A stretch of 64,000 nt of DNA from a virus. Below, in pieces: positions 10,286-58,206 of this stretch (its first letter is position 1; each line of letters starts with the position of its first letter). The notes below the pieces were generated by a model. That model saw only the letters and a list, made by a program, of their open reading frames with translations. It ran no database searches and was not told the DNA's origin. The translations under genes and the position numbers were made by a program. The stretch lies in the IMG/VR virus record IMGVR_UViG_3300025141_000060, positions 10,991 through 74,990 of that record. One strand, given 5' to 3'.

Positions 10286-13200
10286 TATTCCACTGGGTCA
10301 TCACCCATACTGCCATCAGAAGGCGAACTAAATATAGTGTTAGGTACTACCCTTGTATTATAAAAACGATTAAATCCTTGATGTAACGCATCAAAAATCC
10401 TTGCTAAGTTCCAATAGTGTACACTATTATCTAGTTGTCCACCATTAGCATTGCCATTATTTATACCCCCTTGTGCTACGGGCAATTGAATAGCAGAGAC
10501 AATTAAAGAACTAGCTATATGATTCGCATAAACTCCTTTATTTTCTTCTAAAATAAGATCATTTAGTTCGTACAAATCAACCCCACTAAAATCTACAAAG
10601 CTCTGTAGATGATACATTTCTTCATACCATTTCCCAAAACCTTGCGTTAAAGCAGTTTGAATTTGATTACCATTTTCATCAAGAACATAATCTCCTGCCG
10701 CATCCGTTTCCCAAACAAGATCACCTACATCATGAGCAAAATTAGATCCCAACCCTACCTTGCCCGAACTAGGTCTTATTAGTTTCCATACACCACCGCT
10801 AGTATCGGGAATAGCTTCTTTAGATTCTATTGTTATAGCCACATCGGGCGCATCATTAATATTTAAATAATTTATAGTCGGAGTCCATCTAGATGGAATA
10901 TATCCAATAAAATCGTCTGGGACTAGTCTCAGTGTCAATGCTTGCCTACGTCTTCTAGGAGTTGTGGGCTGAGGGGTGTATCCACCTCGCATCCCACCCA
11001 ACATCTCGGGTGGGCAAAGGACACTGCTTGTAAATGATCCGTGCATTTTTTGATCGCCTGTACTATTACCTATAGGGAAGAAAGCTTCACCCCAAGAATA
11101 CTGTCTTGCATGACTTGAGGCATCGGTTACACCTTTAAGAACATTATAAAAAGAAATCGAATCAGAAGGTATATTAAGAGGGTCTCTCGCAGGCAAAGTC
11201 GTCGCCCCTGCTATATCAGCAATAGTCGCTACAATATCCGTTAAATCAATCATAGCATGCGAGCTTACGCCTGCGGAAACTCCTGCACCACTAACAAACA
11301 TTGGGACAAGCATACCTCTGTCATAAAGAGTTGCTTTAAACCCATTTGCGGTGTCGTTTTCTCCTCCCCGTCTAACGGCAGAAGGTGATAACCCAGAGCA
11401 ATAAGCACCTAAGTTAAGCATCTTATCGTAAGTGGCCCCTAAACCCCCTGAGCCTGTGTAACTCCCACCCAAACTACTTGCATACCCAAGACCAATAGAA
11501 GAGGCATACGCTGCTCTCCGTCCTATATCAGGGCCTAATGCTCCATTATCGGAAGTTATAATAAAAACTGTATTCGATTTTTTCGTTTCATCCAAACCTT
11601 GTAAGAAAGAACTTAGAGTTGAATCAAAGTTTTCTAGCATAGCATTAACTGTAACCCAAGTAGAAGACGCTGAATCCGTTGCTCCTACGCCTGCCTCTAA
11701 TAAGGTATGCTGATTTATAGAGGACAACCCACTATTATATATGCCTCCTGAAGGGGGCCATGTATACGGAGTGTGTGGTATGTTGGGCGAAACATACATG
11801 AAAAAGGGCTCTTGGGCTGTATTAAAATAAGCACTAGCAGCCGAGAAGATGTAGTTTGTAGTATAAGAACTTGCGTCCCCTTGCCCGTACTCAACCTCGT
11901 CCGCAGACTGCTTAAAGCTTACATAATTGGAGTCAGAAACGGTATAAGTATCAGCAGTGGGAACACCTTCCTTCGTTGGTATCCCTGGTTTGGCGACAAA
12001 ATAATTAACATATCCCATATTTTTACCACCAGTATAGTACGAAGTTGATCCATTGTTAGGCCAATCATCTGGCTCAATAAACGCACCACTATTAGGATTA
12101 AGTCCAGGTATTGGATCAGCATCCAAATTAGAGAAAGTAGCTAAATAATCATCCCAGTAACCCTTTAAAGCAATGTGTGACCAACCATCACCTTTCCTAG
12201 TCGGGCTATTATCTTCACAATAAACAATATCATCTTCCCATATAGATAAGTGCCATTTACCAAACATAGCACACTGATAATCAATATCAGGTCTCTTTAA
12301 AAAGTTTCCTATGACAGGAGTAGTTGTTATAGTATTCACTCCCCCCAATCCGTCCTCAACCTGATTAGTTAAGTTTTCAAGATCTCCGGTCTTATTTAAA
12401 AACCTAAACCCAGAATTCAGGCCCTTTAAACCACCTCGCGTCCTTCTTGCCGAACTTGGGACAATTCCTATCCCAGGACCCCAGAACCCACGACCTGTGC
12501 CTCCGAAATTTTTAGTACTAAAATTATATCTTCCTGTAAGTAAAGCTGCTCTGGTGGGAGCGCAGGCTGGTTGCGCCCTAACATTAAACATTTGCATTCC
12601 AGCAGCAGCAATTGCACTTAAGGTAGGGGTATAAGGATATAAACTACTTCCATTAACAGGATCATCTAAAACACTAAACGGGGTGGCGGCTGTATGGTTA
12701 TCATTCTGTATTTCGTAAGGATTAATAGCATCGTAGTTTCCTAAATGATCCATCCCTACATCATCTATCATAATAAGAACAACATTCTTTCGATCACCTC
12801 CAGGCGTAGTTTCCGAACTCTCCTCATCTACGATAAACTTTAATTGCCAATCAATAACTAAAGAAAAATCGCTTGTTTTTGTTATTCCTGATCCATCTGC
12901 TAACTGTTTATATGCCACTAAAACTGATTGATCTTTTTTTATATTAGCCTTTCCATCTCTAATAAATAAACCAAATTCTGTGATAGGCACATTATTCAAA
13001 TTATTTGCCATCTCTTCTGTTAACGTCAATCTATAGTGTACCACTCCATCTATAACTTTAGTGGAATGAGAATCAGGTAAAACGGCAAACACCCCCTCAT
13101 CATACTGAGTAGCGAAAGCAGCATCAAAATTTGAAGGATGATACTTGAGAATTTCGTGAGTATTAATCCGAATCTCTGAGTCTTTTCCATAATCATCTTC

Positions 13201-56442: not shown

Positions 56443-56825
56443 TTCATTAGTCCTCTTTTCCTGGCTTCATCATGAAGCTCTTCTTCTTGTCTATCTCCGT
56501 TCTCAACAATTCCCTTGAGAATTGTTGATAGATTTGTCACAACAAGCGTGATCAAACCTGCAACAACTGCAATACTAGTTTCAGGAACAAACTGTATCGA
56601 AAAGATGAACATACAAACGAGGAAAGTTAAGTAAAACCCAGCAAATTTAGCTAAGTGCTTAGAAGCAGTTTCCTTAGCACTCTCTTTAATAAGAAGTTCT
56701 CTGAATTTAGCATCTGATTCCGCATTCATTTTCTCTACTTCAACCCTTCCTTCAGCCTCTTTAAGCTTTAGCGCAGAATTCACATCAATATAACCTTTAT
56801 CATTAATCATTGGTTTATCAGCCAT
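56439..56825 (-). CDS. Two-TM membrane protein (holin candidate)
   Basis: Two TM helices, charged C-terminus, GAGGAG RBS. Confidence 0.55.
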   Translation of the reverse strand: MADKPMINDKGYIDVNSALKLKEAEGRVEVEKMNAESDAKFRELLIKESAKETASKHLAKFAGFYLTFLVCMFIFSIQFVPETSIAVVAGLITLVVTNLSTILKGIVENGDRQEEELHDEARKRGLMK

Positions 56826-56893
56826 TATAATCTCCTCTTGGCATTCCCCTCTCTTTATTTAGGGATACACCCTAAATAATTGTTATTCTTTTT

Positions 56894-56910
56894 TTCCTTG
56901 CACGAAGGAA
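56894..56910 (-). promoter_or_regulatory. SECIS-like hairpin 2 (UUCCUU-CGUGC-AAGGAA)
   Basis: 6-bp stem starting 13 nt after the in-frame UGA at 56926-56924; G at loop position 2. Confidence 0.4.
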
Positions 56911-56911
56911 G

Positions 56912-56965
56912 TTAAGCACCTTTTCAGCAATGTGCTATTCTAGGTATCATAAATCTCTTTTTCAT
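56912..56965 (-). CDS. Candidate 17-aa selenopeptide MKKRFMIPRIAHC-U-KGA
   Basis: AGGA RBS 5 nt upstream of the ATG; TGC-TGA codons followed by a SECIS-like hairpin. Confidence 0.35.
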
Positions 56966-56967
56966 AT

Positions 56968-57255
56968 TTATCCTGCATTAACATTAGGTGATCCCGTAGC
57001 AACATTAGTACAGAGAGTGATTTCATCACCTACCCTACCACACCCCAGACCATTAACAAATACAGTTAAACTACCTGTGGTTATACCTGCGGAATGAGAA
57101 GGACAGGGAATACCAGGAAGTTCGTGAAGATCATTCAAATCTCCCTTCCTAGATATACCCCTTCCGTTAGCATTAACATTAAGAGAGCAACCTACTCTCG
57201 TTGGGATGCTTCAATGAAGTGCGTCTTTATCGTCTTTTCTAGTTACTGCTGGCAT
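56968..57255 (-). CDS. PAAR spike-tip protein (gp5.4-like) with an in-frame UGA at codon 15 (putative selenocysteine)
   Basis: MPAVTRKDDKDALH*SIPTRVGCSLNVNANGRGISRKGDLNDLHELPGIPCPSHSAGITTGSLTVFVNGLGCGRVGDEITLCTNVATGSPNVNAG; three PAAR-type repeats; His14/His44/His54/Cys82 present. Confidence 0.85.
57183..57199 (-). promoter_or_regulatory. Bacterial-type SECIS hairpin (GAGAGUA-GGU-UGCUCUC)
   Basis: 17-nt stem-loop starting 11 nt after the UGA at 57213-57211; apical GU. Confidence 0.7.
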
Positions 57256-57273
57256 ATTTTGTATAGACATAAA

Positions 57274-57311
57274 TTTACCGTCTATCCTAATTATATAGGT
57301 TAGACGGTAAA
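57274..57311. repeat. Long inverted repeat upstream of the PAAR gene
   Basis: TTTACCGTCTA-TCCTA-ATTATA-TAGGT-TAGACGGTAAA. Confidence 0.75.
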
Positions 57312-57324
57312 GTTATTTAATCAA

Positions 57325-58206
57325 TTAACTCCAGGTGTGATAATCTGGGTTGTAGTGTGAGCTTGGGGAAGTGAAGTTGTTAGGGGTTACCCAACCACCA
57401 TCTCTTATAGCCTTACCGATGGCATCCGTTGCAATCTGTACATCCATTGTGTTATCTTGGTTTGTTCGATAACCACCCAACTTCTCAGCTAGGGGGTCAA
57501 TCCACTCGACTAATTTTAAACCACACAAGGAATCAGTGTTAGGCCCAATGTTTGTTCCTAAACATAAGAAGTTATACCCCGTCCAATGTTGTCCGGGTTG
57601 TGCTTGTGGGTAGGTTGGGGGGCCGCAATTAGCGTCTGCACTACCATCAACAATTGCGAAGTTGAAAATCTGCCGAACCTCGGGTGAGAAGGTTAAGTCA
57701 TCTTCCCAACCAGAGCCTGACATTGAGGAAACCCACCAAGTAGGCTTTCTAGAGTAGTACTGAGCCGAAGTTTGGTTAAATGCATCGCCCCCAGGTCCGA
57801 AGCAACCTGCGGATACTTGTCCGTATTGGTTTCCGTCAACACCCGAAATTGATTGAACTGTGAATCTTTGTGGTATTGTAAACGCGGAGGTTTCCCAACA
57901 TTCACCAGAAACAATGTAAGACGCAACTGTACCAATAGCCTGTACAATTAAAGCGGTTTTTTCAATTGTACCTCCGATGTTTACACCTGTAAGTGAAACA
58001 TCTGAGGGTGCCCAGTTGATAGATCCCATTGGGACTCTTTTGTAGCCGTAGGCCAAGCTTTGTTCTCTAATATGCATTGCGGAGCAATAAGCCCCCGATC
58101 CGTCAATGCCTGATGCGGGGCTAGTTCCGCTTGCGTAAATACTCGCAGTAGGGGCTGGAAGTGCGGTCCCATATTGAACGGGTGCTGGTGTTCGTGTTAA
58201 TGCCAT
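57325..58206 (-). CDS. Hypothetical protein, probably structural
   Basis: 293 aa, AGGAG RBS, own late-promoter-like motif. Confidence 0.6.
   Translation of the reverse strand: MALTRTPAPVQYGTALPAPTASIYASGTSPASGIDGSGAYCSAMHIREQSLAYGYKRVPMGSINWAPSDVSLTGVNIGGTIEKTALIVQAIGTVASYIVSGECWETSAFTIPQRFTVQSISGVDGNQYGQVSAGCFGPGGDAFNQTSAQYYSRKPTWWVSSMSGSGWEDDLTFSPEVRQIFNFAIVDGSADANCGPPTYPQAQPGQHWTGYNFLCLGTNIGPNTDSLCGLKLVEWIDPLAEKLGGYRTNQDNTMDVQIATDAIGKAIRDGGWVTPNNFTSPSSHYNPDYHTWS

Follow-up and report, generated by a model that had tools for sequence, protein, structure and literature searches.

The minimal selenocysteine insertion sequence (SECIS) of Escherichia coli fdhF is a 17-nt upper stem-loop placed 11 nt after the UGA codon, with a GU at its apex, a bulged U and a 4-nt GGUC loop. 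To our knowledge, the bacterial selenoproteins studied in depth are without exception cellular proteins, most of them redox enzymes. Here we describe a PAAR spike-tip gene with an in-frame UGA at codon 15, located in a 64,000-nt stretch of viral DNA (positions 10,991 to 74,990 of the IMG/VR record IMGVR_UViG_3300025141_000060; this whole stretch is called the window from here on). The UGA is genuine, is kept across diverged phages under purifying selection and replaces a conserved cysteine, and it is followed by a hairpin that is reinforced and co-varies, in a genome whose genetic code is unchanged. Taking the evidence together, we put at about 0.7 the probability that this UGA is decoded as selenocysteine (Sec) by means of the SelB and tRNA-Sec of the host, with the hairpin acting as a bacterial SECIS.

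The arrangement is like that of bacterial Sec-UGA/SECIS systems such as E. coli fdhF, in that an in-frame UGA stands where the homologues have Cys and a stem-loop lies in the coding region just downstream. The likeness to the minimal fdhF element extends to the 11-nt spacer, the 17-nt length of the stem-loop and the GU in the apical loop. A preliminary description of this locus had drawn the same analogy, which holds for the spacing, the stem length and the GGU loop but fails for the bulged U, which is missing. As the loops of the window gene and of its UGA-bearing relatives are of 3 or 5 nt and are not GGUC, the window element fits the general bacterial SECIS (bSECIS) model and is not a copy of the fdhF element. 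This model comprises a loop of 3-9 nt, a stem of 4-16 bp, a G in the first two loop positions, a distance of 16-37 nt between UGA and loop and a minimum free energy (MFE) of at most -7.5 kcal/mol (PMC13188914). In common with bSECIS elements, the phage hairpins have a G in the first two loop positions (GGU or AGUUG) and a loop that begins 17-18 nt after the UGA, and the flanking coding sequence is conserved. The gene departs from bacterial selenoprotein genes in being viral, in coding for a structural protein of the virion and not for a redox enzyme, and in that the decoding machinery must come from the host. In this regard, selenoproteins have been reported in eukaryotic viruses, namely the glutathione peroxidase homologues of molluscum contagiosum and fowlpox viruses (recoding review, PMC8310308). 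The phage would resemble these viruses in borrowing the Sec insertion of its host for an in-frame UGA, but theirs are captured redox enzymes with a SECIS in the 3' untranslated region, whereas here a bacteriophage would use an in-frame bacterial SECIS for a structural protein.

As for the protein, it resembles the PAAR tips of known structure (Vibrio cholerae VCA0105, 4JIV; E. coli c1882, 4JIW; T4 gp5.4, 4KU0/5IV5) and EC042_4537 of enteroaggregative E. coli (EAEC) in its length of ~95 aa, its family profile and its set of His and Cys residues for an apex metal. Unlike the PAAR structures of type VI secretion systems (T6SS), the marine phage subfamily has extra invariant cysteines at positions 15, 51 and 72, and whereas the described PAAR members carry either Cys or His at their tip positions, the window gene has the Cys beside His14 written as UGA. 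A full-text literature search, including a 2026 review of prokaryotic selenoprotein families and the deep-Sep paper, turned up neither a selenoprotein of a phage nor one of the PAAR family. The mechanism of recoding is known as such, while its use for a structural protein of the phage virion is undescribed in the searched literature, in agreement with the preliminary description, which knew of no phage virion selenoprotein.

The UGA codon and the reading frame around it

The gene and the elements discussed below are placed as follows.

56968..57255, minus strand: PAAR spike-tip gene, from ATG at 57255 to TAA at 56970-56968, 95 sense codons, with UGA at codon 15
57211..57213, minus strand: proposed selenocysteine codon UGA (codon 15), in the context D-A-L-H-[TGA]-S, in the column of the near-invariant Cys of the H-C-S motif
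57200..57210, minus strand: spacer (AGCAUCCCAAC), 11 nt between the UGA and the hairpin, of the same length in all TGA-bearing relatives
57183..57199, minus strand: SECIS-like hairpin, with the 5' arm at 57199-57193, the loop GGU at 57192-57190 and the 3' arm at 57189-57183; the loop begins 18 nt after the UGA

The TGA at 57213-57211 is the sole internal stop in the 95-codon PAAR frame, so that every sequence feature given in the preliminary description, an otherwise intact 95-codon PAAR gene with TGA at codon 15 and a hairpin 11 nt on, is present. The read-through product matched PF05488 with 30.3 bits (the Pfam cut-off being 27) and phrog_281 of PHROGs with E=1.9e-19, and had 242 homologues in our protein collection. 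Furthermore, the profile of this family matched the solved PAAR tips 4JIV and 4JIW at E ~5e-10 and T4 gp5.4 at E 6e-3. The best homologues from cultured phages are the PAAR proteins of Prochlorococcus phages P-HM1 and P-HM2, with 61-63% identity, and a blastn search of the PAAR region against cultured phages gave zero matches. His14, His44, Cys51, His54, Cys72 and Cys82 are all found in the window protein. An AlphaFold2 model, built from a 26-sequence alignment, reached a mean predicted local distance difference test score of 56.5, which is too low for fold searches or distances. Gene callers annotate just a 56-aa fragment of the gene (P0056, P0122), starting at an internal TTG (57138). In addition, there is an alternative in-frame start at ATG 57270, five codons upstream, which would add M-S-I-Q-N, and the same extension is also found in the closest Cys-bearing proteins (P0002, P0003, P0006).

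The presence of the TGA in nature was borne out by independent assemblies. Four marine metagenome runs, from four samples and four studies, gave Logan contigs that span the whole PAAR gene with zero differences; these runs may share one campaign or include the source sample. In a separate contig from the Joint Genome Institute (JGI; L023) the TGA and the hairpin recur, and a single base outside them is substituted. Over the 2.5-kb stretch around the gene, partial matches came from 24 runs of 19 studies. Judging from these contigs, from which minor TGY alleles (Y, pyrimidine) could escape, the TGA is no assembly error. The contig of one run (X3; window positions 56808-57405), from a related strain, differs in the flanks, at 56850-56866 and 57329-57387, by 24 positions and 4 indels and is identical throughout PAAR, a pattern that suggests a recombination mosaic or a very strong constraint on the PAAR nucleotides.

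The codon-15 column was Cys in all 24 full-length homologues aligned and also in 112 further unique genes, the latter being our Cys-bearing control set, which was collected with a pattern that demands TGY at this codon; the H-C-S motif that the preliminary description gave is thus correct. The N-terminal pattern ending in TGY had at least 120 matches in IMG/VR (L046-L165). When IMG/VR was scanned with the conserved N-terminus ending in H-TGA, five further contigs (L041-L045) with TGA at codon 15 were found. Their PAAR genes are otherwise intact, have 96 codons and belong to three diverged lineages with 69-78% amino acid identity to the window protein, so that in the aligned homologues this column holds Cys or TGA. 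A looser N-terminal pattern returned no TGA genes besides these five.

The group of TGA-bearing genes is under purifying selection. The ratio of nonsynonymous to synonymous substitution rates (dN/dS) was 0.09-0.23 at dS 0.34-1.7, the three further lineages having diverged from the window gene to dS ~0.9-1.7, and the proportion of nonsynonymous differences (pN) was below that of synonymous differences (pS) in every comparison within the TGA clade for codons 16-95, and for codons 1-14 in the seven comparisons that have synonymous differences upstream of the TGA. The constraint on both sides of the TGA indicates that both sides are translated in this frame, which excludes a pseudogene and also a restart at the internal TTG. 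The preliminary description had considered relaxed selection on this copy beside a second intact one, and neither was seen, as the dN/dS values are those of purifying selection and no second PAAR gene is present in the 74,990-bp record, which is 67% complete. Additionally, no premature stop was found among ~118 sampled Cys-bearing genes, which are the sole proxy for the rate of TGA at non-Cys codons since our TGA scans covered the Cys columns.

In a tree of 117 rows all TGA genes fall into a single clade (SH-aLRT 89) whose neighbours are L100 and L118, both with Cys, and in a quick tree with the closest Cys-bearing proteins added, monophyly of the TGA genes was not recovered. A tree constrained to TGA monophyly was better by 6.75 log-likelihood units and was not rejected (p of the approximately unbiased test, 0.65). 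A single origin of the TGA is the best reading of these trees, although the 96 columns of the alignment leave one to three origins. Either result, one origin or several, argues for a function.

The downstream hairpin and a second UGA site

The hairpins of the TGA-bearing genes, written as 5' arm, loop and 3' arm, are the following.

Window: GAGAGUA, GGU, UGCUCUC
L041/L044: CAGAGUC, GGU, GGCUCUG
L042/L045: GAGAGC, AGUUG, GCUCUC
L043: GAGAGC, AGUUG, GUUCUC

The window and L041/L044 have a stem of 7 bp, a GGU loop and a spacing of 18 nt, and L042/L045 and L043 have a stem of 6 bp, an AGUUG loop and a spacing of 17 nt. Two pairs of the stem are compensatory across the TGA-bearing relatives (GC to CG and AU to CG), each changed on both sides, and in both of them the change in the 5' arm is a synonymous third-position change while the change in the 3' arm alters an amino acid. 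From the remaining stem pairs, two show one-sided compatible changes and three are invariant. Paired cells amount to 94% of the TGA hairpin alignment, compared with 34-51% in slid registers.

The stem is also stronger after the TGA than in the Cys-bearing homologues. The MFE over 21 nt was -6.8 to -9.2 kcal/mol in the TGA genes (-8.0 in the window), while the 112 Cys-bearing genes averaged -2.9 kcal/mol, with their 5th percentile at -6.6 kcal/mol, and each TGA hairpin was more stable than synonymous-codon resamplings of its own protein (p = 0.0006-0.07 per lineage). Furthermore, a strict geometry, defined by a loop start 17-19 nt after the codon, a loop of 3-5 nt, a G in the first two loop positions and a stem of at least 6 bp, was found in all five distinct TGA genes, in 11 of the 112 Cys-bearing homologues and at 1% of random genome positions. 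The compensatory changes that the preliminary description proposed to look for therefore exist in the TGA-bearing copies, with two co-varying pairs; a restriction of the hairpin to these copies, which it named as a further check, holds in part, as the hairpin is reinforced there and the strict geometry occurs in those 11 Cys-bearing genes as well. Coding constraints account for part of the hairpin, since the AGA codon of a conserved Arg is complementary to the TCT codon of a conserved Ser, and the weak hairpin of the Cys-bearing genes may be a pre-adaptation that would let a change from TGY to TGA be decoded at once.

Both the hairpin of the window gene and those of its TGA relatives agree with the bSECIS model in loop, stem, G and spacing (PMC13188914). 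A search of the whole window against Rfam found no family. The hairpin was also flagged by a scanner as an intrinsic terminator, a candidate that we rejected, as in the relatives the stem is retained without a run of T and the element is enclosed by an open reading frame (ORF) under constraint. Codon 23 of the window gene is TGC (57187-57189) and codes for a lineage-specific Cys23 where the relatives have Gly or Val; its first base makes the A-U pair at the top of the stem, where L041 has C-G, and constraint on the RNA structure seems to have driven this amino acid change.

A second site with the same feature was found in the family. Four IMG/VR contigs (L168-L171), identical over 300 nt, encode a member of the same PAAR family in which Cys15 is kept and the Cys51 column is occupied by TGA (P-[TGA]-P-S-H; L168:2489-2526). 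A hairpin of 7 bp follows this TGA as well, with a GUU loop starting 24 nt downstream, and taken alone it is only modestly unusual, 11% of controls being equally stable at that position. TGA patterns at the Cys72 and Cys82 columns gave no real match. Three further contigs (L166, L167 and L172) were chance matches to the patterns and not PAAR genes.

The two UGA columns can be placed with respect to the tip. PAAR tips bind Zn through three His and one Cys, and in the EAEC protein, where H14, C41, H46 and C74 were tested, through two His and two Cys (PMC10715212). In the profile alignment with 4JIV and 4JIW, H44 and H54 of the phage family fall on two of the three tip-loop His residues and C82 on the Cys, C51 lies in a gap beside the third His, and H14 is conserved as well. 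Given that Zn is bound by His and Cys and that C51 stands beside the third His of the T6SS tip loop, both UGA positions would be at or beside the presumed metal site. The preliminary description had proposed H14, H44, H54 and C82 as the ligands; all four residues are present, while the same alignment leaves it uncertain that all of them belong to the ligand set. It had also suggested a possible Sec15-Cys51 bond, toward which the sole hint is that Cys51 is the other column with a TGA lineage.

Decoding of the UGA

The decoding that we favour would proceed as follows. The phage mRNA would be translated in a Sec-competent host, with the hairpin 11 nt downstream of the UGA serving as a bacterial SECIS and recruiting the host complex of SelB, GTP and Sec-tRNA(Sec) to the ribosome paused at the UGA. 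Sec would then be inserted where the family has its invariant Cys15, giving a full-length PAAR protein, and Sec15, beside His14 at the metal-stabilised apex of the cone, could either bind the metal or pair with one of the tip cysteines, for example Cys51. The dependence on SelB and tRNA-Sec, the incorporation of selenium and the chemical role at the tip are what we infer from the features described above. More broadly, it seems rather probable that marine T4-like PAAR tips would constitute an undescribed selenoprotein family, with Sec at Cys15 in the clade of the window gene or at Cys51 in the second lineage, at or beside the metal site of the apex that pierces the membrane, that infectivity would need host SelB and selenium, and that the weak hairpin of the Cys genes was the pre-adaptation.

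Several observations weigh against Sec insertion. The case for it is indirect, and two pattern scans of bacterial genome contigs gave 0 matches and thereby no clue to the host or to its selABCD content. None of selA, selB, selC and selD was found in the phage records, which are fragmentary; a search for SelB in the phage records returned none, and there was no tRNA of any kind, including tRNA-Sec, in the 75 kb or in five related contigs (ARAGORN, for the window). The hairpin has its own weak points. Its covariation statistics are weak, 33 of 500 shuffles attaining the observed value, because just five distinct UGA-bearing sequences, probably of one origin, are available. A weaker hairpin already exists at the site in the Cys-bearing homologues, of which 10% have the strict geometry. 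The bare 17-nt hairpin of the window, at -6.6 kcal/mol, falls short of the bSECIS threshold of -7.5 (the bare stem-loops of the TGA relatives range from -5.7 to -8.1), which it passes only with flanks, at -8.0 with 2 nt on each side (21 nt) and at -10.9 over the 45 nt after the UGA. In addition, the stem is perfect and has no bulged U of the fdhF type. Lastly, the PAAR monomer caps a trimeric spike and is present in one copy per virion; since one copy suffices, inefficient readthrough without Sec could sustain the gene.

This last point leads to the explanation by a programmed readthrough independent of SelB, in which a leaky UGA would be read by a near-cognate tRNA (for Trp, Cys or Arg), perhaps aided by the hairpin, and the stop might act as a brake on expression. 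That selection is purifying on either side of the UGA proves that it is decoded but not by what, and the lack of sel genes and tRNA-Sec in the phage records also speaks for this explanation. However, the UGA falls exactly on an invariant Cys, as does the sole other in-frame TGA found in the family, whereas a brake of this kind could occupy any codon, and a Trp in place of a conserved tip Cys would be expected to do harm. Moreover, the geometry of the hairpin is that of a SECIS, with a G-containing apical loop at 17-18 nt, and we know of no need for such a hairpin in bacterial readthrough; on balance we regard this explanation as unlikely. The alignment of UGA with Cys and the SECIS-like hairpin would fit equally well if the UGA were read as cysteine, either by a Cys-charged tRNA-Sec-like tRNA acting with SelB or by a UGA-suppressor tRNA-Cys of the host or of the unsequenced part of the phage, where a tRNA could be missed as the record is 67% complete. 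Such tRNAs are rare, none was found in the 75 kb or in the five related contigs, and a general suppressor clashes with the many TGA stops and ATGA overlaps of this genome, all of which makes Cys decoding very improbable.

An even smaller chance is left to a broken gene or artefact, be it a nonsense allele, an assembly error or a truncated product restarting at the TTG at 57138 (the 56-aa ORF). The change from TGY to TGA takes a single base and gene callers report the 56-aa fragment alone (P0056, P0122), but the TGA is present in the contigs of four runs and in the separate JGI assembly, and the three further lineages (dS ~0.9-1.7) have intact frames with dN/dS of 0.09-0.23. Furthermore, the restart product would lack codons 1-14 and 16-39, which are nevertheless constrained, the gene is the sole PAAR of the record and the ~118 Cys-bearing genes carry no premature stop. 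Finally, the reading in which the phage or its host has reassigned UGA throughout the genome, to Trp or Gly, has nothing to speak for it beyond the in-frame TGA itself and is refuted by the rest of the sequence, to the point that its probability is negligible. TGA terminates 28 of the 80 ORFs of at least 100 aa, at least nine gene junctions have an ATGA overlap, and ten long ORFs (10,074 codons) contain 0 TGA and 104 TGG, in line with the preliminary description, which took TGA for an ordinary stop in an unreassigned code. Reading TGA as sense lengthens the ORFs no more than reading TAG as sense does, and the genes neighbouring the PAAR of L041 are intact under table 11. The other in-frame TGA candidates of the record were all antisense to long genes and none was credible.

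If codon 15 is indeed decoded as Sec, a bacteriophage would have a selenoprotein among the structural proteins of its virion, and selenium biology would reach phage particles. Phage production would be tied to the selABCD genes of the host and to a trace element, a new constraint on host range and biogeochemistry in the ocean. It would also be a natural case in which Sec seems to be favoured not as a catalytic residue but for binding metal or forming cross-links at a tip under mechanical load. As gene callers systematically cut such genes short, here to 56 aa, the proteins escape the viral annotations of today. With ~95 aa and a 17-nt element, the system is small and directly testable.

Phage lineage and neighbouring elements

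The source is a linear IMG/VR record of 74,990 bp, estimated to be 67% complete and with 39% GC. This uncultured marine phage branches deeply among the T4-like viruses, as far as its sequence tells. Its terminase shares 32-35% identity with terminases of the KVP40 type and its portal protein matches phrog_213, and both genes lie 2-5 kb from the window PAAR, whose direct neighbours match no family in PHROGs or Pfam. About 20 window proteins tested against Pfam and PHROGs had no match except terminase, portal and PAAR, and the T4-like lineage to which the phage belongs is very poorly known. In contig L041, PAAR sits in a T4-like tail module consisting of a gp15-like gene, PAAR, gp18 (sheath) and gp19 (tube). 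These neighbours are unrelated to those in the window, which indicates that the UGA feature moves with the gene and not with the genome region. The genes of the window and of the record are nearly all on the minus strand and include very large ORFs (2167, 1169, 1148, 1055 and 1026 aa).

Two inverted repeats were found next to the PAAR gene.

57269..57316, no strand: inverted repeat with 21-nt arms, 90% complementary, with 6 nt between the arms; it fills the intergenic region upstream of PAAR and overlaps the ATG at 57270
56855..56879, no strand: perfect 10-bp inverted repeat (TTATTTAGGG / CCCTAAATAA), ~90 nt downstream of the PAAR stop

The upstream repeat may be a regulatory element or a terminator of the upstream gene, and the downstream one is terminator-like on the plus strand.

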